Assembly (NCBI GenBank): GCA_965200315.1
Contig: OZ241362.1
Coordinates: 4,192,001-4,256,000, forward strand
From: Candidatus Latescibacterota bacterium
Lineage (GTDB): Bacteria; Latescibacterota; UBA2968; UBA8231
Reading direction: 5' to 3'
DNA length: 64,000 bases
How positions within the stretch are numbered: the stretch's first letter is position 1; each line of letters begins with the position of its first letter. This document shows positions 14,496 to 38,627 of the stretch, piece after piece. Position numbers and translations under genes: made by a program. The notes beneath the pieces are model-generated. The model was given only the letters and a program-made list of their open reading frames with translations, was not told where the DNA came from and did no database searches.

Positions 14496-14571
14496 GGCCC
14501 GTTCGTCTAGAGGCCTAGGACGCCGGCCTCTCACGCCGGTAACACGGGTTCAAATCCCGTACGGGCTACCA
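14496..14571 (+). tRNA. tRNA-Glu(CTC)
   Basis: Acceptor stem GGCCCGT/ACGGGCT, anticodon arm CCGGC-CTCTCAC-GCCGG, GGTTCAAATCC T-arm, encoded CCA, 76 nt. Confidence 0.95.
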
Positions 14572-21504: not shown

Positions 21505-23265
21505 TCACTCCCGGAGCGCCAAATGCAGCTCCCGCAACTGCTCCGGCGACACCTCGCCCGGTGCGCCCATGAGCGGATCCTGTGCGTTTTGGTTCAGCGG
21601 GAAGGCGATGACCTCGCGTATGTTCGGTTCGTCCGCCAGCAACATGACGATGCGGTCGATGCCGGGCGCGATGCCGCCATGAGGCGGAGCGCCGTAGCGC
21701 AAGGCGCGGATCAGGCCCCCAAACTTGCGGTCCACTTCCCGCGGCGAATGCCCGGCAATCGCAAACGCCTTGTACATGATGTCTGGTCTGTGATTGCGGA
21801 TGGCACCGCTCGACAGTTCGAGGCCGTTGCAGACGATGTCGTACTGATAGGCCTTGATCTCCAGCGGCGGTTGCGTCTCCAGCGCCGCCATACCGCCCTG
21901 CGGCATGGAAAACGGATTGTGCGAAAAGGCCACGCAGTCGCGTTCCTCGTCCCATTCGTACATGGGAAAATCGACGACCCAGCAGAATTCATAACAACCC
22001 TCCCGCCGCAGGTTGAGCCGGTCTGCCAGATGCAGGCGCAACCGTCCCGCTAGAGCCGCGGCCGCGGCTGGCGGCCCGGCGACGAAGAAAATGGCGGCCC
22101 CCGGCGCGGCGGCACATTCCTCGATGATGCGGTTGCGCACACTCTGTTCTAGGGCCGCGGCGATTGAACCTGTGGCTTGGGCTCCGTTGATGAGGTACGC
22201 CAGCCCCTTGCCGCCCGCTTCTTTGACGAATGCTTCGAGGCGGTCGAAAAACGAACGCGGCTGCCCCTCCAGCTTGGGAACGCATAGGGCGCGGACGACT
22301 CCTCCTGCTGCGACGATGTCCCTGAACAGTCTAAACGAGGAGTCCGCAAAGATCGCGGAGAGGTCTTGAATTTCGAGCCCGAAGCGCAGGTCTGGTTTGT
22401 CCGTGCCGAACCTCAGCAGAGAGTCGGCGTGGGAAAGACGCGGGAACGGCGGCTCGGTCACTTTCCAATCGGTGAATTCGCGGAACAGACCCGAAAAGAG
22501 GGCCTCGACCACAGCAAAGACGTCCTCCTGCTCAACGAAGGCCATCTCGAGGTCGAGCTGGTAGAACTCGCCGGGGGAGCGGTCGGCGCGGGCATCTTCG
22601 TCGCGGAAGCAGGGCGCGATCTGGAAGTAGCGGTCGAAGCCAGACACCATCAGCAACTGCTTGAACTGCTGAGGTGCCTGCGGCAGCGCGTAGAATTGGC
22701 CGGGATAGAGCCGGCTCGGCACGAGGTAATCGCGGGCGCCCTCGGGCGAGATGCTAGTGAGAATGGGCGTCTGGAACTCGGCAAAGCCCATCTTTGTCAT
22801 GCGCCGTCTGATGCTGGCGATCACCTCCGAGCGGAGCTGAATGCGGCGGTGCAGCCCGGCCCGGCGCAGGTCTAAGAAGCGATAGCGCAACCGGGTGCTC
22901 TCTCCCACTTCGGAATCTTCCGCTATGGAAAAGGGGAGTGGCTGCGCTGACGAGAGCACTTTTAGCTCGCGGACGGCGAGTTCCACTTCTCCGGTCTCCA
23001 TCGCGCTGTTGATGGTCTCAGGCGTCCGTTCGCGCACATCGCCCACGACGCGGATTACGGATTCGCGGAGAACCTTTGACGCAGTTGCCGCAGCGTCATT
23101 TTCCGGCGAGATCACGAGTTGGGTGATGCCGTAGTGGTCGCGCAGATCTAGGAACAATACGCCTCCGTGGTCCCGGCGGCGATGAATCCAGCCACTCAGG
23201 CGAATGGTCTGGCCGGCGTGGTGCTTGCGGAGTTCGCCACAGGTGTGCGTGCGATAGCGGTGCAT
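21505..23265 (-). CDS. aspS: Aspartate--tRNA ligase, probably non-discriminating Asp/Asn type
   Basis: [13 protein letters not shown] (His at the position typical of ND AspRS), [31 protein letters not shown]. Confidence 0.95.
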
Positions 23266-23276
23266 GGTAGCCTCCT

Positions 23277-23319
23277 AAAAACAGAAAACCCGCCGCGATG
23301 CGTGTTCGCGACGGGTTTT
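23277..23319 (-). terminator. Attenuator terminator upstream of aspS
   Basis: AAAACCCGTCGCGA-ACACGCA-TCGCGGCGGGTTTT-CTGTTTTT immediately before the aspS RBS. Confidence 0.8.
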
Positions 23320-23348
23320 GAATGCTTGGGTTGGGTTGGAGTTAGTCG

Positions 23349-23414
23349 TCAGAACACGCGCAATGGAGCTAGCGGGTTATTATTCTGCGCGCGGTCGTTG
23401 TGACGGGTCATCAT
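23349..23414 (-). CDS. Asn-rich leader peptide of aspS (MMTRHNDRAQNNNPLAPLRVF)
   Basis: 21-codon ORF with AAT AAT AAC at 23384-23376. Its 3' part GCGTGTTC..CGAC is complementary to the terminator 5' arm and loop. Confidence 0.7.
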   Translation of the reverse strand: MMTRHNDRAQNNNPLAPLRVF

Positions 23415-23422
23415 AGTCGTCT

Positions 23423-23450
23423 AAGATAGCGGAAGGCCGAATTCCGTCAA
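23423..23450 (-). promoter_or_regulatory. Putative promoter of the aspS leader
   Basis: TTGACG-16nt-TATCTT, with the leader ATG about 8 nt downstream (possibly leaderless). Confidence 0.45.
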
Positions 23451-23464
23451 GCTGGGCTATGCGC

Positions 23465-23511
23465 TTGCCTCGGGCATCCAATGTGACTACAATTATCCTA
23501 ATGTAGTTACA
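23465..23511 (+). promoter_or_regulatory. vapBC promoter with palindromic operator
   Basis: TTGCCT-17nt-TACAAT overlapped by inverted repeat TGTGACTACA...TGTAGTTACA. Confidence 0.6.
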
Positions 23512-23524
23512 AGGAGATCAATGA

Positions 23525-23791
23525 ATGAACGCATCCATACGCGACCTGAAGAGCAGGTTGTCGCGCTACCTTCGGCAAGTCCAGCGGGGAGAGACCGTTG
23601 TCGTAACTTATAGAGGGAAGCCCATCGCCCGCCTCGTGCCGCTACCGCCCCTCCTGTTGGAAGAGCGGCTGTCCACCTTGCCGGGGATCAATGCCGGGAC
23701 AGGGGGAAAACCAAGAGGTGCCACGCGCCCAGTGCGCGTCAAACCCGGACAGAAAAGCGTTGCGGACATCGTGGTAGAAGAGCGGCGGTGA
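23525..23791 (+). CDS. Phd/YefM family antitoxin
   Basis: SIRDLKSRLSRYLRQVQRGETVVVTYRGKPIARLVP. Confidence 0.9.
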   Translation: MNASIRDLKSRLSRYLRQVQRGETVVVTYRGKPIARLVPLPPLLLEERLSTLPGINAGTGGKPRGATRPVRVKPGQKSVADIVVEERR

Positions 23792-24225
23792 TCCTCTTTC
23801 TCGATACATCGGCTCTCGTCAAGCTGTACGTCGAGGAGGACGACTCCGAGGCGGTACGCGGCTGGGTAGAGGGGGCCGAGGAAGTTGCCTGCCAGTGGAT
23901 CGCATACGTGGAGGCGCGATCTGCTTTGGCTGCCAAGCAGCGTTTGGGCGACTTGTCCGATGCAGAGTTGGCGGAATGCAGGGAGGAACTAGAGCGGGAT
24001 TGGGAGCGATATCACCGCGTCGCGGTTACGCAGACTCTCCTGCGACGAGCCGGTGCTCTGAGCGAACAACTCGGCGTCCGCGCCTATGACAGTGTTCACC
24101 TTGCGGGGGCTGAGTACCTGCAATCCTCGCTGGGAGTGCCGATAACCTTCGGGTCCTTCGACCGCCGACAGGTCGATGCTGCCGCACAGCTTGGAATGCT
24201 CATTGCATCGGTTGATGACAACTGA
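23788..24225 (+). CDS. vapC: VapC PIN-domain toxin
   Basis: FLDTSALVKLY, RAYDSVHLA, SFDRRQ. 4-bp overlap with the antitoxin. Confidence 0.9.
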   Translation: MILFLDTSALVKLYVEEDDSEAVRGWVEGAEEVACQWIAYVEARSALAAKQRLGDLSDAELAECREELERDWERYHRVAVTQTLLRRAGALSEQLGVRAYDSVHLAGAEYLQSSLGVPITFGSFDRRQVDAAAQLGMLIASVDDN

Positions 24226-26585: not shown

Positions 26586-27659
26586 ATGAGAGTCTGCATC
26601 ATCGCTAGCGAAGCTTTGCTTGCTTGGCACGGGTTTGCGCTGGCCCAAGGATCAACCAACGATACAAACCGTTGGATGGCCGAGCAGCCCAAGGTAGAGG
26701 CATGGTTCGGCGGATGGGAAGTCGGAGGTCGAATCGACGCAGAAGGGATTTCCCGGCTCCCGGACTCGGGAGATAACACCGCAGGTGTTGGCGTGGCGGA
26801 AGCCGTGCTTGGGGTCGAAGCTGCGATAAACGACTGGATTGGCGGCGAGGTCGGCTTGCTATACGAGACCGTGAATATTGGGTTGGACGACAGGGAAGAC
26901 GGCACAAGCACCGCGGTTGACATCGCAACGTTGATGATCGGAGCGCCGGAAGGCTTGTGGTCTGTTACGGCAGGCCGGCAATACGCGCCGTTCGGCGTGT
27001 TTGCAACCAACTTGATCTCCGACCCGCTGACACTCGAACTCGGCGAAACAAACGAGGTTGCCGTGCAATTCGGGTTGTCGTCCGGCGGATTGCACGGGTC
27101 CATTTTCGACTTCTATGGCGATAATGAGCAAAATGGCGGTTATGGCGCTGCGATCGGCTATTCGCTGGAGCGCCGCGAGTCCGAGTTCGACCTGAACCTG
27201 TAGTACATCAGTGACATCGGTGCTTCAGGTAACCTACAAGAAGTGATCGCCGATAGTCGTGGCCGCAATAATATACCGGGTTGGTCAGTCAGTGCCGAGT
27301 TGGGTTACAAAAACGCATCGCTGATTGGCGAGTACCTCGCTTCGCTGGAGCGTTTTGCAGAAGACGAAGTAGAGTTCGCCGGACGCGGTGCCCAACAGTC
27401 GAGCTGGTCGCTCGAAGCGGCTTGCGATGTTAGCCTTGCGGGCAAGGCGGCAACGGTTGTTGCGAGCTATCAGGGTCTGGAAGAAGCGCTGGCGCTGGGG
27501 CTGCCCGCGCGGCGGGTTCTCGCTGGGGTCTCGGTGGAACTGGCGGAATGGTTCACGCCAGCCATCGAATGGGCGAGAGACGAAGATTATGCGCGCCAGG
27601 ACGGCGGCAGCGGCGAGCAAGTTAGCACGATCACGGTTCAGGTCTCCGCAAAATTCTAA
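26586..27659 (+). pseudogene. LbtU-family siderophore porin interrupted by an in-frame TAG (27201-27203)
   Basis: GRQYAPFG...ISDPLTLELGETNE. The same frame continues after the TAG (YISDIGAS...) to a C-terminal Phe (VQVSAKF). Confidence 0.7.
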
Positions 27660-32630: not shown

Positions 32631-34409
32631 CTAGGCGAGCGTCTCGTTGTATTGCAATTGATGCAGGCGGGCGTAGATGCCGTCTTGGGCTAGCAGCTCT
32701 TCGTGGCGGCCCTCTTCGCGTAGCTGGCCGCGATGCAGCACTAAAATTTTGTCGGCACTGCGAATGGTTGAGAGGCGATGGGCAATGACGATGGACGTGC
32801 GGTCGCGCATCAGTTTTTCCACCGCCTCTTGGATCCAGCCTTCGGTCTCGGTGTCGATGTGGGCAGTGGCTTCGTCCAGCACCAAAATGTCCGGGTCGGC
32901 CGCTAGGGCGCGGGCAAGGGACAAAAGCTGACGCTGACCGGCAGACAGGGCTGCGCCGCGCTCTTGTACCTCGTGCTGGTAGGTGTTGGGCAGGCGGTCG
33001 ATAAAGCGGTCGGCGTTGACATAGCGAGCTGCTTGGGCGACGGCTGAGTTTGACAGCTCGGGAGCACCGAAACGGATGTTGCTGGCAATGTCCCCGGCAA
33101 AGAGAAAGACGTCCTGCTGCACCAGACCAAAGCGCCGCCGCAATGCTTCTACATTCCATTCGCGGATGTCGATGCCATCGACCAAAATTTGCCCGCGTTG
33201 AATCTCGTAAAAGCGGCACAGCAAGCTGATGATGGTCGTCTTGCCCGAGCCGGTGGCTCCGACTAGTGCCAAGCTTTGGCCCGGGTCGGCGCAGAAGGAA
33301 ACGTCGCGCAGGACCCACTCCTCATCTTCATAAGCAAACCACACGCGGCGGAATTCAATGGCACCGGCGATGCGCTTCCGATGCACGGAACCGCCGCTTG
33401 GCTCTGGCTCGGCGTCCATTAGTTCAAAGATGCGCTCGGAGGAAGCCATAGCCACCTGCACGGTGGCGTATTCCTCGGCGAGGTTGCGGATGGGCATGAA
33501 GAAGCGGGGCACGTATTGCAGCATGGCCACCAGAACGCCCCAGGCGATTTCCTCGCGCAGCACTTGGCCGACGCCGTACCACAGCACCAGCGCCATCAGG
33601 GCCGCACCACACAACTCCATAAAGGGGAAGTAGGCTGAATGGTACAAGGTGCGCACCAAGCGGGCGTCGAGGTATTCGTCGGTGCCTTGGTTAAAGCGGC
33701 GGGCGCTGCGCGGCTCGCAGTTGAACAGTTTTACTACTTCTATACCCGACAAGGTTTCCTGCAAATCGGCGCTGAAGCGGGCAAAGCGAGTGCGGGCTTG
33801 GCGGAAGGCTTGGTAGGTGCGGTTTTGTAGCCACAGGGTGGCGGCAAAGGCCACCGGCAAAAAGGCGCAGGTGATAAGGCCCAGCTCGACATCGAGATAG
33901 TAGAAGATGTAAAACAGGATAGAGGCGATGGTGACGGCTTCAGTCACCAACGAGACAGCACCGTAGGTGAAGAACTCGTTGAGCGCATCGACATCGCTGG
34001 TATTGCGCGCCATCAGCCGGCCAATGGGCGTGCGGTCGAAAAATTTGAGCGGCAGGCGCTGTAGGCAGGTGAAGATGTTCAAGCGCACGTCGCGCATAGT
34101 CCATTGGCCGACCATGCTGGTGATCCAGCTCTGGGCGTAGCCGATGGCGAATTGAGCGACCAACAGCGCGGCGAAGAGCAGGACGAGGGTGCCCAAACCG
34201 TCCAAGTCGCCGGGCACGATGTGGTCGTCAACGGCTATTTTGGTCAGCACGGGACCGGCTTGGCGGGCCAGCGAGGCCACGAGGATGAGCAGCAACGTCG
34301 AGACCGCCCACGGCCAGTAGGGCCGCAAGAAACCCAACAGCCTCGTCACCAAGCGGAGGTCGATAGATTTTTTGTCTATTTCCTGCTCGTCGCGGCTGGT
34401 CGGCGGCAT
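32631..34409 (-). CDS. ABC exporter (MdlB-like) TMD+NBD
   Basis: GATGSGKTT, LSAGQRQ, LDEATAHID. Confidence 0.9.
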   Translation of the reverse strand: MPPTSRDEQEIDKKSIDLRLVTRLLGFLRPYWPWAVSTLLLILVASLARQAGPVLTKIAVDDHIVPGDLDGLGTLVLLFAALLVAQFAIGYAQSWITSMVGQWTMRDVRLNIFTCLQRLPLKFFDRTPIGRLMARNTSDVDALNEFFTYGAVSLVTEAVTIASILFYIFYYLDVELGLITCAFLPVAFAATLWLQNRTYQAFRQARTRFARFSADLQETLSGIEVVKLFNCEPRSARRFNQGTDEYLDARLVRTLYHSAYFPFMELCGAALMALVLWYGVGQVLREEIAWGVLVAMLQYVPRFFMPIRNLAEEYATVQVAMASSERIFELMDAEPEPSGGSVHRKRIAGAIEFRRVWFAYEDEEWVLRDVSFCADPGQSLALVGATGSGKTTIISLLCRFYEIQRGQILVDGIDIREWNVEALRRRFGLVQQDVFLFAGDIASNIRFGAPELSNSAVAQAARYVNADRFIDRLPNTYQHEVQERGAALSAGQRQLLSLARALAADPDILVLDEATAHIDTETEGWIQEAVEKLMRDRTSIVIAHRLSTIRSADKILVLHRGQLREEGRHEELLAQDGIYARLHQLQYNETLA

Positions 34410-34421
34410 TAGAGGTCGCTC
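34378..34421. repeat. Direct repeat copy 1 flanking the R-M cassette
   Basis: 44 bp with one mismatch to 38798-38841. Weaker similarity extends about 35 bp further left. Confidence 0.85.
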
Positions 34422-37003
34422 TCCTTGTCAAAATACTCCGGCAGCTTGGCTCTCCATTCGCTCATCAGAATCAGAGTGCCTTGCACTGTCTCGCCGTTGC
34501 TTTGGACAAGTTCTAGCTCACCGGCTGGGGTAAACTCGTCCCAACAGAAGTTGTCGGACAGGAAGGACAGGACTTCGCGCTTATAGGCCGTGTCGAGATT
34601 GTCGAGCTGGTCGCCTTTGGTCTCAAGGACGATGACGCCTTTGCCTCGAACGGCGAAGATGAAGTCGGGATAGATTTTGGCCTGCTTCCAAGCCTGAATG
34701 CCGTACTGCGTCCGCGCAACGTTGCGATGCCACCACGAGAGTGCGGCTTCACCGTCTAGGTAGATCGCAACATCGCGCTCGTCTTGGTTCAATTCGCTTC
34801 CGTACACCGGCGCGAACAGGCTCTTTTCTAACGGCCCTCCCGTCGTGCTCACGAGCTGACGGGCATTGTCGGGCTCCATTGTCTCCGCAATAAACGGCAT
34901 GCGCCAATTGCGACCGTCAAGACGCAGCCGAAACTGAATCCGGCCCGCCTCCATCTCCGCCTTGAACAAGGCTTCGGCCCGCACGGTGCGCTCGGTATCC
35001 AAGCCCTTGCGCAGTTCCTCGACGATCAGGCTGGCAAGCCCGCCCAGTTTGGCTTCATCGAAGCCGCGCACCTTCAGGTCAGACAAGAGCTTGCCAACGA
35101 TTTCCCGCCCGACGAATGGGTTGGGCACTATATCTGATATCATCCTAACGGCATACGCGGGATCAAAGGCGAGGGTTTCGGCATTCTTGGCGACCGTCTC
35201 ACCAACGAACAATTCGTCCCCGTCATCGCTGAGTTTGATGCGCTGAAGCTGGCTCTCGGCGGCTTGGGCATTGTCGGGAATACGGGCCGCGATGTCCTTC
35301 GGGTCGTAGCCGCGCCAGTCAATGCACGACAACACATCGGTTTCATAGTCTAGGTCGCGCCCCTCGCCTCCGTCCACAATCAGGACCTTGGGCAGATAGA
35401 TTTCCGTTGAAGCGAAATCCGCTCGCCGCTCGAGCTGCCTCTCCACCCTGCCGCCGCCTGACGTGTCGTCTTGGGAGACCTGCAAGACCATATCCCCGAG
35501 ACCATCTTTCTCAAGACCATTCTTGATAGCCTCCACGACTTTCGCGGTAGCGGTGCGATGGGTTATGACGTGACATTCGTCCAGCGCGGTCACCTCAGCC
35601 TTGGTCGCACCCGGCTGACGGAGAATTCGCCCTACGAGCTGGGTCATGGCCTTCAGGTTGGAATTGGCGGCTAAGGCACAAAGCAGATAGGCGAAGGGGC
35701 AGTCCCAGCCTTCTTGAAGTGCCTGCTTGGTGATGATGAAGCGGACGCGGTTCGTTGGCGACAGAAGGTTCTGGTTTTCTGGCTGGTTCAGGTCGTTCTG
35801 TTCAGCCGTCTTGATTGCGATTTCCGCCTCATCAAAGCCCGCCTTTAGAAGCCAGTCCTTCACGTCCTCCGCATGGATGTGCCCGCTTTCGCGCTGGTCC
35901 GCGCCGGTGCGCTCCACCTGTATCAGCATGATGGGCCGAATGTAGCGCCCCGTGTCGGCCTGCAGCTTCCGAGCCTCGTCGCCCAGATCGCCGAGCTTGG
36001 CGACAGCGGCGTTCAAGGTCGTCTTCCAGTCATTACCCTGCCGGGGATCGAGATTGAGAGGCATCTTGATCATGCCCTCGCGGTCCAGATCGCGCCCGGT
36101 CACTTCGACCAGCACATTCGCGTATCGGCCCTCGCGCGGGTTCCTGCCACCACGCGGCTGCACATCTTGGGGCGTCGCCGTGAGTTCCAGCACGAAACAC
36201 GGGTTGAAACCGTAAAGCGTACGAAACGCCAAATCGGAAATGGCCCGGTGCCCCTCGTCGAGCACCACGACGGGACGGATGATCCGCAGGGCGTTGCCGA
36301 GCGAATCCTTCACCATCGGGAATATGTCGTTATAGCCGTCTAGGTTGGGTGTCTGATCGAGTGCTGCCTTGTGGGCCTGCTGTGCGCCTTCGGGCGGGAA
36401 GAAGCCATGCACATCGCCGCGATCCTGAAACATTTTCAGCGAGTCCTTGTTCTCGCGGTTCGAGGATTGCAGCATCAAGAGCATGACGCAGAGGTTGGTT
36501 TCCACGTCGCGGGCATTGAGGCGGTCGGTCTTCTCCATGAGCTGCACCCGGCCAGCGGCGGCGCGATCAAGTGCCTGCCGGTAGGGGTGTTGGCGGTCCT
36601 TCAGATGCTTCAGCGTCTGGGTGTAGATCGCTTCGTTGGGGACGACCCATAGTACAAAGCCGGTGTTGCGATTGAGATAGCGGCCCATAATCCGCGAGAC
36701 GGCAGAGACCGCGAGATAGGTCTTGCCACCGCCGGTTGGGACCTTCAGGACGGCGTTTGGTACGGGCCGGTCGCACCCGTCTAGGCGGGGCGAAAAAGGA
36801 ATCGCCGCACGGGAGGCCGGGAGGTTTGCTCTCAGGGCCTCCCATGCCTCTTGGGCGAAATCTGGGAGCGGGAGGTTGAGATAGGGGTTTTCTACGGCCA
36901 GTGCGACGATCTGGTCGGATCGGGCCTTTTTCTCCTGCAGAAGATCGAGATGAGCGTCAATGGCCGTAAGGGCGCGGTCCTGGTAGTTGAGCTGGCGGAA
37001 CAT
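34409..37003 (-). CDS. res: Type III restriction endonuclease Res subunit
   Basis: VPTGGGKT, DEGH, LQEGWD, GRILR, C-terminal PDF...LETKG nuclease motif. Confidence 0.85.
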   Translation of the reverse strand: MFRQLNYQDRALTAIDAHLDLLQEKKARSDQIVALAVENPYLNLPLPDFAQEAWEALRANLPASRAAIPFSPRLDGCDRPVPNAVLKVPTGGGKTYLAVSAVSRIMGRYLNRNTGFVLWVVPNEAIYTQTLKHLKDRQHPYRQALDRAAAGRVQLMEKTDRLNARDVETNLCVMLLMLQSSNRENKDSLKMFQDRGDVHGFFPPEGAQQAHKAALDQTPNLDGYNDIFPMVKDSLGNALRIIRPVVVLDEGHRAISDLAFRTLYGFNPCFVLELTATPQDVQPRGGRNPREGRYANVLVEVTGRDLDREGMIKMPLNLDPRQGNDWKTTLNAAVAKLGDLGDEARKLQADTGRYIRPIMLIQVERTGADQRESGHIHAEDVKDWLLKAGFDEAEIAIKTAEQNDLNQPENQNLLSPTNRVRFIITKQALQEGWDCPFAYLLCALAANSNLKAMTQLVGRILRQPGATKAEVTALDECHVITHRTATAKVVEAIKNGLEKDGLGDMVLQVSQDDTSGGGRVERQLERRADFASTEIYLPKVLIVDGGEGRDLDYETDVLSCIDWRGYDPKDIAARIPDNAQAAESQLQRIKLSDDGDELFVGETVAKNAETLAFDPAYAVRMISDIVPNPFVGREIVGKLLSDLKVRGFDEAKLGGLASLIVEELRKGLDTERTVRAEALFKAEMEAGRIQFRLRLDGRNWRMPFIAETMEPDNARQLVSTTGGPLEKSLFAPVYGSELNQDERDVAIYLDGEAALSWWHRNVARTQYGIQAWKQAKIYPDFIFAVRGKGVIVLETKGDQLDNLDTAYKREVLSFLSDNFCWDEFTPAGELELVQSNGETVQGTLILMSEWRAKLPEYFDKESDL

Positions 37004-37007
37004 GTCA

Positions 37008-38627
37008 TCAGCTCGGGTCTATGCGATAGAGCGCGTAGGGCAGGGGCACAAACTCTACGGGGATGTTCTGCTCGGCCAGCATCTTCTGGCTCACGAAGCG
37101 GGTAGAGGCAAAGACTAGGTGGCGCTTGTCCGGGGCCGTCTCTGCAAATTTCTTGGCACGGGTGAGTGTCAGCGCGGAGTCAGGTGACTTCAGATAGTCG
37201 AGATCGGGTTTGTAGATCAGCCAGACATGCTGGCCCGCGGTCGCGCCGAGATAGAAGTCCGCCTCGCGCACGGTCGCGGGCGTGAGGGCACTATTGGTCG
37301 CCATGTGGAACAGGGATGCACCAATTCCCGAATAGGAAGGCAGCGTTTCGCCGCTCAGTATCTTATCTAGTTCGACCGGGGAGCCTAGGGTGTAATAGGT
37401 GAAGGTGCCGCCCAGCCCTTCCCGCAACGACTGGTCGTGGGCCGAAGGTACGCCCTTGATGGCGTGGCGCACCCGCTCGGCGGTAGTTGTGTCGGCGTAT
37501 TTCTCGCACTCCACCAAGATAAACTTGCGATTGCCGCCATCCTCTTTATTGAGTGCCAAGACGGCGTGGGCGGTGGTGCCGCTGCCAGCAAAAGAGTCGA
37601 GAACGATAGCGTCTTTTCTACGCAATATCGCCAGCAAAAACTTCACTAGTTTTGTCGGTTTGGGTTGCGGAAATACTCCCCCCGTGCCGAATAGCTCTTG
37701 CAGCTCTCGGGTGCCGTCCTTGTTGAACCCCACCTCTTCTGGCGAAAGAATCGCGTCAGGTGGTTGCCCCTCTTGGACTTCATTCAGATACCGTTTTGCT
37801 TTGGGTTCTCTGCCGGAGAATACAATGCGATTCTGCTGCTCCATTTCTCGCAATTTGCATTTCGAGTACCTAGGGTATTTTCCAGAGGGAGGCTGCCAAA
37901 TGGTGCCATTTGCGAAGGTGAATGTGTAAGGTTCGTAATAGTTTCTTGCATGGATAGGATCAAGCTTGTACTGGCCGCGCCCATCATTGTCATCATGTGG
38001 ATACTTGCTTGCCTTGTCGGTAATGTGTCGAATGTAACGGGCCTTTTCTGAACTAAACCATGTCTTGTCCTTTGCATAGGCGAGAACATAGTCGGCGTTG
38101 AGGTTAAAGTCCTTGCTGGAATTGCGGACGGTGTGCATTGCTCTTCTCGTGAGAACAGCAAAAAAATTGATGTCACCGAAAACTTCATCCATTAACATCC
38201 GTAGATGGTGCTGCTCGTTATCGTCAATGGACACGAAAATCACGCCGTTATCGGCCAGTAATTCCCGTAGTAATCGCAGACGGGGCCACATCATTGCACA
38301 CCACTTGTCGTGGCGTAGACCGTCCTCAATCCCTACCGGGTTTGAATTGATCCACTCCTTGATCACGGGAGAATTTACGTTGTCGTTATAGCACCAGCCT
38401 TCGTTACCGGTGTTGTAGGGCGGGTCGATGTAGACGCAGTCCACCTTGCCCGCGTAGAGCGGCAGAAGTGCCTTGAGGGCGTGTAAGTTGTCGCCGTGAA
38501 TGATCAGGTTGCCGTCGAGCGCGACCGGGCCAATGCCCTTGGTCGCGTCCGGGACGAGCGGACGGAAGGGTACGGCAAGATGATGATTATAGACAAATTC
38601 CTTGCCCTTGAAATTCAGATCGGTCAT
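37008..38627 (-). CDS. mod: Type III N6-adenine DNA methyltransferase Mod
   Basis: GDNLHAL, IDPPYNTG, central TRD, DSFAGSGTT (beta-class order). Confidence 0.9.
   Translation of the reverse strand: MTDLNFKGKEFVYNHHLAVPFRPLVPDATKGIGPVALDGNLIIHGDNLHALKALLPLYAGKVDCVYIDPPYNTGNEGWCYNDNVNSPVIKEWINSNPVGIEDGLRHDKWCAMMWPRLRLLRELLADNGVIFVSIDDNEQHHLRMLMDEVFGDINFFAVLTRRAMHTVRNSSKDFNLNADYVLAYAKDKTWFSSEKARYIRHITDKASKYPHDDNDGRGQYKLDPIHARNYYEPYTFTFANGTIWQPPSGKYPRYSKCKLREMEQQNRIVFSGREPKAKRYLNEVQEGQPPDAILSPEEVGFNKDGTRELQELFGTGGVFPQPKPTKLVKFLLAILRRKDAIVLDSFAGSGTTAHAVLALNKEDGGNRKFILVECEKYADTTTAERVRHAIKGVPSAHDQSLREGLGGTFTYYTLGSPVELDKILSGETLPSYSGIGASLFHMATNSALTPATVREADFYLGATAGQHVWLIYKPDLDYLKSPDSALTLTRAKKFAETAPDKRHLVFASTRFVSQKMLAEQNIPVEFVPLPYALYRIDPS

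Follow-up and report, generated by a model that had tools for sequence, protein, structure and literature searches.

The aspS locus and its promoter

The DNA analysed (the window) was a stretch of 64,000 nucleotides (nt) of Candidatus Latescibacterota (GCA_965200315.1, contig OZ241362.1, positions 4,192,001 to 4,256,000), in which a putative ribosome-mediated transcription attenuator with asparagine (Asn) regulatory codons was located from 23450 to 23266, upstream of aspS. Coordinates are window positions, and all parts of the attenuator as well as aspS were on the minus strand. The aspS gene (21505..23265) encoded a bacterial-type aspartate--tRNA ligase (AspRS) of 586 amino acids (aa), which matched NF001750 over its full length (801.6 bits), and was preceded by the Shine-Dalgarno sequence AGGAGG (23271..23276). 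It would be the regulated gene and is apparently monocistronic, with the following downstream open reading frames (ORF) on the opposite strand. The whole attenuator was contained in a 259-nt intergenic region separating aspS from a divergent Phd/PIN toxin-antitoxin pair.

A -35-like hexamer TTGACG (23445..23450) was followed, after a 16-nt spacer, by a -10-like hexamer TATCTT (23423..23428). TTGAC[G/A] stood at the equivalent position in five of the five members of the clade described below, and TATCTT in four of them, with TACACT in the fifth (L003). Promoter-like sites numbered 4 within 2 kb, against 0.6 expected. The leader ATG was 8 nt past the -10 hexamer in the window (8-9 nt in all five clade members), and no Shine-Dalgarno-like motif was found between the two in the window or in its four relatives. 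This spacing would make the leader mRNA leaderless or near-leaderless, and leader translation is apparently leaderless or nearly so, the transcription start being placed from the promoter spacing. A promoter making the leader nearly leaderless had been proposed in a first-pass annotation of this DNA, and TTGACG-16-TATCTT at 23450..23423, conserved in the clade with the ATG 8 nt on, agreed with it.

Leader ORF and asparagine codons

The leader ORF (23349..23414) had an ATG start and 21 codons plus TGA, and encoded the peptide MMTRHNDRAQNNNPLAPLRVF. Codons 11-13 formed the Asn run AAT AAT AAC (23376..23384), and codon 6 was an additional Asn codon, AAC (23397..23399). The 21-aa leader with three consecutive Asn codons described in the first-pass annotation was therefore present at 23414..23349, with a further Asn at codon 6. 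Asn accounted for 4 of the 21 leader codons, against 3.05% of 15059 codons in 28 window genes (binomial P = 3.4e-3). Among 376 short ATG ORFs (10-45 aa) of the window, the aspS leader was the only one with three consecutive Asn (NNN).

Seven leaders were available from the clade, five of the kind found in the window (type A) and two of a second kind (type B). Taken individually, their Asn content had binomial P from 1.3e-2 to 1.7e-4, values that are not independent since the leaders are related. AAT made up 19 of the 35 leader Asn codons and 145 of 459 in window genes (binomial P 0.004, overstated since the leaders are related). Aspartate (Asp) was not enriched: each of the seven leaders had exactly one Asp, against a background of 6.3%. 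On these counts no weight was given to the Asn-Asp pair that had been regarded as part of the signal, and an Asp-sensing reading was rejected.

Two other readings of the ORF were discarded. A glutamine-sensing leader was rejected with 0-2 Gln per leader, counted by eye. A link to AspRS-targeting peptide-nucleotide antibiotics (microcin C type) was rejected as well, there being no maturation genes nearby and the ORF being embedded in the attenuator structures.

RNA structures and folding

The minimum free energy (MFE) fold of the free RNA consisted of a 1:2 hairpin (23405..23385 with 23363..23347), with the Asn run in its loop, and a 3:4 terminator (-46.9 kcal/mol, z = -2.35; 3/200 shuffles folded equally well). 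Segment 1 (23385..23405; CGTCA..GA.CGCGCGCAG) was the 5' half of the 1:2 hairpin. Segment 2 (23347..23363), within which the leader stop TGA (23351..23349) was located, paired with segment 1 in the MFE or, as GCGTGTTCTGACG (23359..23347), with segment 3 in nascent folds. Segment 3 (23300..23313; CGTCG-C-GAACACGC) comprised the inner part of the terminator 5' arm plus the loop. The terminator hairpin (23285..23319) had 14 pairs (8 G-C), a loop of 7 and a stability of -22.6 kcal/mol, and the U tract TTTTCTGTTTTT after its stem extended to 23277. The terminator ended 8 nt before the aspS AGGAGG, with the Shine-Dalgarno sequence outside the hairpin.

All four attenuator segments of the first-pass annotation were recovered by folding, with the 1:2, 2:3 and 3:4 pairings, and so was a 14-bp stem plus U-tract just before the aspS ribosome-binding site (RBS), at 23319..23277 and 8 nt ahead of AGGAGG. 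The pairing of CGCGCA in segment 1 with TGCGCG, given there as the basis of the 1:2 helix, held as an extra found in the window only; the conserved core was CGUCAGAAC (codons 4-6) with GUUCUGACG. An RNAalifold consensus of the five type A sequences retained a 15-pair 1:2 helix in all of them, with few breaks.

Nascent RNA was folded under a stall model, in which the ribosome was placed on the last Asn run, only RNA 3' of the ribosome was folded, and the transcript extended to segment 3. In the window this gave a 2:3 antiterminator of GCGUGUUCUGACG (23359..23347) with CGUCG-C-GAACACGC (23313..23300), with 13 pairs, one bulge and -17.5 kcal/mol. The 2:3 structure was obtained in 7/7 elements (-17.5 to -24.6 kcal/mol in type A and -30.1 to -31.0 kcal/mol in type B), and was mutually exclusive with 3:4, as expected from the alternative structures proposed earlier. 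As a control, the stretch upstream of the terminator was shuffled with dinucleotides preserved, 1000 times per element. The stability of 2:3 in the window was matched by 3/1000 shuffles, and by 1/1000 when the terminator arm had also to be sequestered. Across the seven elements, shuffles as stable with the arm equally sequestered numbered 1, 2, 1, 3, 13, 2 and 0 per 1000. With the ribosome on the stop codon, the residual nascent structure was -2.1 to -2.8 kcal/mol in six elements (L003 not counted).

No other copy of the element was found in the window, where segment 2 occurred once, or elsewhere across the 80 loci described below. The spacer between segments 2 and 3 contained CUCC (23336-23339, minus strand), which is complementary to GGAG of the aspS RBS and paired with it in the MFE; it was present in 4/5 type A elements and deleted in that of L001 (L001a). 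Judged from the fold, CUCC:GGAG pairing could add a translational layer.

Conservation in related Latescibacterota

A protein search with AspRS, taking one genome per species, kept 80 loci. Four of these (L001, L002, L003 and L005) were metagenome-assembled genomes (MAGs) of Candidatus Latescibacterota with AspRS 82-92% identical, all others being at most 64%. The five clade proteins, window included, were 81-93% identical and formed a clade in the AspRS tree (100/100), within which the window, L001 and L002 formed a subclade (90/96).

The attenuator unit (hexamers, ATG spacing, Asn-rich ORF and segments 2-4) was found upstream of aspS in 4/4 clade relatives, with orthologous leader ORFs of 21-28 codons. 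Both the leader ORF and its Asn codons, whose conservation in orthologous loci had been named as a check of the original proposal, were kept in all four. No Asn-rich ORF was found within 500 nt upstream of aspS in any of the 76 non-clade loci, four of which offered at most 101 nt. NNN occurred in 12 of 9330 short ORFs over the 80 loci; 4 of the 12 were aspS leaders, the fifth, L005a, being outside that count, which left a background of 8 in about 9326 other short ORFs. The sole NNN ORF upstream of aspS outside the clade (L055) sat inside a T-box leader. A crude terminator finder was too permissive, flagging 39/76 loci, and the 10 strongest of these had no Asn- or Asp-rich upstream ORF on inspection.

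The type A leaders of the relatives were MITRQNDRTQNNNPLAPLRVF, MMTRQNDRTQNNNNPLASLRVF, MMTRQNACTHNNPANPGDNNPPAPLRVF and MLTRQKDRTCNNQANSGNNNPLAPLRVF. Type A ORF lengths were 66, 66, 69, 87 and 87 nt, with indels of 3 and 21 nt only; the untranslated spacers measured 33, 28, 32, 34 and 33 nt, with indels that were not multiples of 3. Asn counts were 4, 4, 5, 6 and 6 in type A and 6 and 4 in type B. Asn positions were retained through AAT/AAC swaps while most other residues varied, and the stop was always 8 codons from the last Asn in type A (5/5) and 10 codons from it in type B (2/2).

Segments 2, 3 and 4 were invariant in the five genomes while the intervening spacer varied, and the terminator core was identical in L001, L002, L003 and L005 (4/80 loci). 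The C-terminal PLAPLRVF was conserved in type A and coincided with segment 2; as third codon positions were invariant too, the constraint would concern the RNA and not the peptide. Gene content upstream of the attenuator unit differed among the clade genomes, which argues that promoter, leader, attenuator and aspS have been retained as a single unit.

A putative second attenuator in tandem

A second attenuator (type B) was found between the first terminator and aspS in L001 (3806-4000) and L005 (3803-4000). The window, L002 and L003 had no type B and thus a single copy only. The type B leaders MTFRYNHTAYAFANNNDNNPAIRARWRWP (L001) and MTSRHKHAAHAFSNSDSNNNPAIRARWRWP (L005) were Asn-rich and had their own Shine-Dalgarno sequence. 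The type B terminator had -24.5 kcal/mol and the antiterminator, which uses the terminator 5' arm, 17 pairs and -30 to -31 kcal/mol; shuffles as stable with the arm sequestered were 2/1000 and 0/1000. Segments 2 and 3 of type B were unrelated in sequence to those of type A, but the architecture and the Asn richness were the same.

Two terminator-arm substitutions between the type B elements of L001 and L005, as read from the sequence, left the terminator as well as the antiterminator fully able to pair at these positions. When type A and type B terminators were aligned, 70/70 cells paired and 3/10 pairs had compensatory changes. The covarying stems suggested as a check were accordingly found in the terminator in the comparison of A with B, and were absent within type A.

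Compared by eye, the flanks of the single-copy genomes matched different edges of the tandem. The junction was GGAG in the window and L002, and GGCGGGTTTT, common to both terminators, in L003, and these junction sequences suggest independent deletions of type B. As type B was found inside and outside the subclade of the window, and as the junction edges differed, the ancestral state of the clade was probably two tandem attenuators, lost at least twice, with the window keeping the first only.

AspRS and the asparagine pathway

The window AspRS matched NF001750, TIGR00459 and bacterial AspRS structures end to end, with the insertion domain present. The His of the motif RRRDHGG is taken here to be equivalent to Pseudomonas aeruginosa His31, in the anticodon-binding loop, and to be a determinant of non-discrimination; the Gly of P. 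aeruginosa PEGARN is presumably the second determinant of non-discrimination or tRNA(Asn) acceptance. RRRDHGG was found in the window AspRS, identical to the P. aeruginosa Asp/Asn ligase 4wj3, with Leu in E. coli 1c0a and Thermus thermophilus 1efw, and its His was present in 5/5 clade AspRS proteins. The position of the P. aeruginosa Gly was occupied by Glu (TPETIN) in the window AspRS and by Lys in E. coli. The first-pass annotation had described an RDHGG His of the non-discriminating type with no evident second Gly, and both observations stood. Judged from the sequence, the residue signature for non-discrimination is split.

No gatCAB, asnS or asnB was found among the 53 scanned window ORFs, nor, in the four relatives, at up to 4 kb from aspS. 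According to PMC4206432, a non-discriminating AspRS works together with GatCAB to make Asn-tRNA(Asn) in bacteria that have no AsnRS, and a predicted Asn auxotroph keeps GatCAB despite encoding AsnRS. Either situation would make control of aspS by Asn codons sensible. The leader was Asn-rich and not enriched in Asp, which is indirect evidence for a role of AspRS in Asn-tRNA(Asn) formation, and a tie of the attenuator to a non-discriminating AspRS is plausible. The sole tRNA gene of the window was tRNA-Glu(CTC) (14496-14571, plus strand); neither tRNA-Asn nor tRNA-Asp was found in the 64 kb.

Interpretation and competing explanations

With a probability of roughly 0.8, on comparative and structural computation, aspS is controlled by a classical ribosome-mediated transcription attenuator with Asn regulatory codons. 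The first-pass annotation had proposed such an attenuator, and it gained support from conservation in the clade, from the folds and from a divergent type B element that repeats the same logic. From the conserved sigma-70-like promoter, transcription would begin at the leader AUG itself or no more than a few bases away. The 1:2 hairpin would form first, might serve as a pause site, and would have its segment 1 melted by the leading ribosome. With Asn-tRNA(Asn) plentiful, the ribosome would reach the UGA inside segment 2 and cover segment 2, 3:4 would form, and RNA polymerase would terminate at the U tract near 23277-23285. With Asn-tRNA(Asn) scarce, the ribosome would stall at the Asn codons with its 3' edge short of segment 2, which starts 19 nt past the point where the last Asn codon begins. 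Left free, segment 2 would pair with segment 3 once this is transcribed, the terminator would be blocked and aspS transcribed. The presumed biological logic is that AspRS supplies Asp-tRNA(Asn) for amidation by GatCAB, and that a shortage of the end product Asn-tRNA(Asn) would induce AspRS.

Several observations weigh against this interpretation. The elements were 5 + 2 in number and came from a single clade; within type A, segments 2-4 never varied and hence showed no covariation, the covariation found being confined to the terminator in the comparison of A with B. Leaderless initiation has promoter spacing as its one line of evidence. Segment 1 was upstream of the Asn run rather than over it, unlike in textbook attenuators. 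The Glu of AspRS in place of the P. aeruginosa Gly and the failure to find gatCAB, asnS or asnB near aspS count here too. In type A, the antiterminator (-17.5 to -20 kcal/mol) was surpassed in equilibrium stability by the terminator (-21 to -24.6 kcal/mol). In folds that masked just the ribosome footprint and let bases on either side of it pair, the terminator persisted in the MFE at most stall positions (e.g., at window codons 12 and 13, and at all L005a stalls); these results were mixed since segments 1 and 2 joined again over the masked stretch. Given the more stable terminator and its persistence under footprint-only masking, the switch must work kinetically, following the trp paradigm, and in this model antitermination must depend on the ribosome holding segments 1 and 2 apart.

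Synthetase genes are often under the control of trans factors, and the alternative structures could be real but set by uncharged tRNA, AspRS or an RNA-binding protein, the ORF being incidental. T-box-like leaders of aspS in two Clostridiales loci (L055 and L058) are in line with this, and base-level conservation of segments 2-4 would also fit a protein or RNA binding site. However, neither the window region nor the four relatives had a T-box or other Rfam match, and a trans factor leaves unexplained why indels keep the reading frame, why Asn codons persist through synonymous exchanges, why the distance from Asn to stop is fixed, and why a second leader of unrelated sequence is again Asn-rich. 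This explanation is improbable. Slightly less so, although still unlikely, is an Asn-codon sensor with another output, either Rho-dependent polarity or control of aspS translation, e.g., through CUCC (23339..23336) and GGAG. The spacer CUCC was present in 4/5 type A elements and paired with the Shine-Dalgarno region in the MFE, and mycobacterial leaderless Cys short ORFs (sORFs) act on RBS access, according to bioRxiv 10.1101/834739. Such an output has against it that all seven elements had a canonical terminator and that the antiterminator specifically consumed the 5' arm of that terminator; moreover, the Shine-Dalgarno sequence was outside the hairpin, and CUCC:GGAG comprised just 4 pairs and was absent from the RNAalifold consensus.

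The least probable of the explanations weighed, and a very unlikely one, is that the ORF specifies a small peptide with a function of its own, or that the ORF and its Asn run are due to chance in a 5' untranslated region with a constitutive hairpin. The PLAPLRVF C-terminus was conserved in type A and short ORFs were common (376 in the window), but the conserved C-terminus was segment 2, with invariant third positions, and the remaining peptide varied except for Asn. Chance is also opposed by the rarity of NNN, which the leader alone had among the 376 short ORFs of the window and which 8 of about 9326 other short ORFs had, and by the binomial P for Asn content of 1.3e-2 to 1.7e-4 per leader, in related and hence non-independent leaders.

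A wider claim built on Asn-codon attenuation has about even odds: that the aspS element is the first attenuator of the leader-peptide type to sense Asn and the first to read the indirect tRNA-dependent Asn route, in which a leaderless sensor raises a non-discriminating AspRS as Asn-tRNA(Asn) falls, with a tandem origin in the clade ancestor. If true, leader codon identity could reveal, from sequence alone, which AspRS enzymes act on tRNA(Asn). The codons sensed here are those of Asn whereas the synthetase is annotated as specific for Asp, and this mismatch would provide regulatory evidence, independent of the protein sequence, for a role of the enzyme in Asn-tRNA(Asn) formation. Further Asn leaders (e.g., before gatCAB) might define an Asn "ribulon" in these uncultured bacteria. 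Classical attenuation would be extended to an uncultured phylum without studied regulation, with an apparently leaderless sensor and an ancestral tandem.

Comparison with known systems

Leader-peptide attenuation is textbook knowledge for the trp, his, leu, thr, ilv and pheA operons, and Vitreschak et al. are said to have surveyed classical attenuators comparatively in 2004. With these the aspS element shared a short ORF with a codon cluster of one amino acid, the 1:2, 2:3 and 3:4 helices, an intrinsic terminator, and a stop codon set such that the terminating ribosome masks segment 2. It differed from them in sensing Asn, in having a synthetase gene rather than a biosynthetic operon as target, in its apparently leaderless leader, and in having the Asn run in the loop between segments 1 and 2 and not within segment 1. 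By its sequence the element would belong to the classical leader-peptide attenuators, all structural features tested being present, with a new specificity and target and an unusual codon placement.

The synthetase genes pheST of E. coli are under leader-peptide attenuation with codons of the cognate amino acid, Phe. The aspS element resembled pheST in that a synthetase gene would be under leader-peptide attenuation sensing tRNA charging, and differed from it in having Asn codons before an enzyme annotated as AspRS. Asn codons before an AspRS gene would be puzzling unless the enzyme acts on tRNA(Asn) as well.

For Clostridium acetobutylicum, Saad et al. reportedly described in 2012 and 2013 a tRNA-dependent Asn pathway under T-box control. 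Common to both systems would be production of the aspS/gatCAB-route enzymes tied to tRNA charging and a terminator/antiterminator output; the T-box reads uncharged tRNA directly, without translation, whereas the aspS element would read charging through the translating ribosome. The T-box model (RF00230) had no match at gathering score in the window, L001, L002, L003 or L005, and none with E up to 10 in 23100..23700. With all of Rfam 15 and E up to 10, this region gave chance-level matches only (CrfA, E 0.22 and 4.4; CRISPR repeat, E 2.4); at gathering score, Rfam 15 matched one tRNA in the whole window, and tRNAs only in 13 loci.

T-box-like leaders were seen upstream of aspS in two Clostridiales MAGs, L055 (3747-3938) and L058 (about 260 nt upstream of aspS). 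Against RF00230 the L055 leader reached 61.4 bits with E 3.8e-13, short of the gathering score (93), and served as positive control for the model. The specifier region of these leaders contained AAU AAC AAC, with no Asp codon there in L058 (by eye), and from this sequence their specifier may be Asn. By analogy, control of aspS by tRNA charging may have a parallel in the Clostridiales T-box.

The Salmonella mgtCBR leader has tandem short ORFs with their own alternative structures, responding to different signals. L001 and L005 likewise had two short ORFs with alternative structures in series (the window being single copy), but, in contrast to mgtCBR, both ORFs were Asn-rich, and the tandem would sharpen one response. 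In the mycobacterial polycysteine leaderless sORFs, as described in bioRxiv 10.1101/834739, ribosome stalling remodels the downstream RNA and acts on translation. A run of codons for one amino acid in a leaderless sensor ORF and remodelling of RNA by stalling would be common to both, the leaderless start being inferred in the present case. The mycobacterial sORFs have a sequestered RBS and no terminator, whereas the aspS element had a canonical terminator, would sense Asn, and had its Shine-Dalgarno sequence outside the hairpin.

A literature search turned up neither an attenuator with Asn codons nor a leader peptide for aspS, one possibly relevant survey of attenuation in synthetase operons being outside its coverage; this agreed with the earlier remark that no leader-peptide attenuator was known for the Asn pathway. 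A Shewanella screen lists aspS simply as "tRNA synthetase leader", with no mechanism (PMC2659441), and an actinobacterial survey reports Ile T-boxes as its only finding ahead of synthetase genes (PMC1262725).

Other features of the window

Divergent from the leader were a Phd-family antitoxin gene (23525..23791, plus strand) and a PIN-domain toxin gene (23788..24225, plus strand). An imperfect palindrome, ACTACA-N10-TGTAGT, at 23486..23507 overlapped promoter-like hexamers, was also present in L002, and from its sequence and position is probably the antitoxin operator.

An LbtU-family siderophore porin gene (26586-27659, plus strand) was split into two in-frame ORFs by one single TAG at 27201..27203, the halves matching profile positions 4-162 and 195-327. 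The TAG could be a nonsense mutation, a mark of a pseudogene or a sequencing error. Two neighbouring genes in 34409-38627 (minus strand) weakly resembled, in one case, a type III restriction endonuclease (34409..37003) and, in the other, adenine-specific DNA methyltransferases (37008..38627), and this pair was flanked by two MsbA-like ABC transporter genes.

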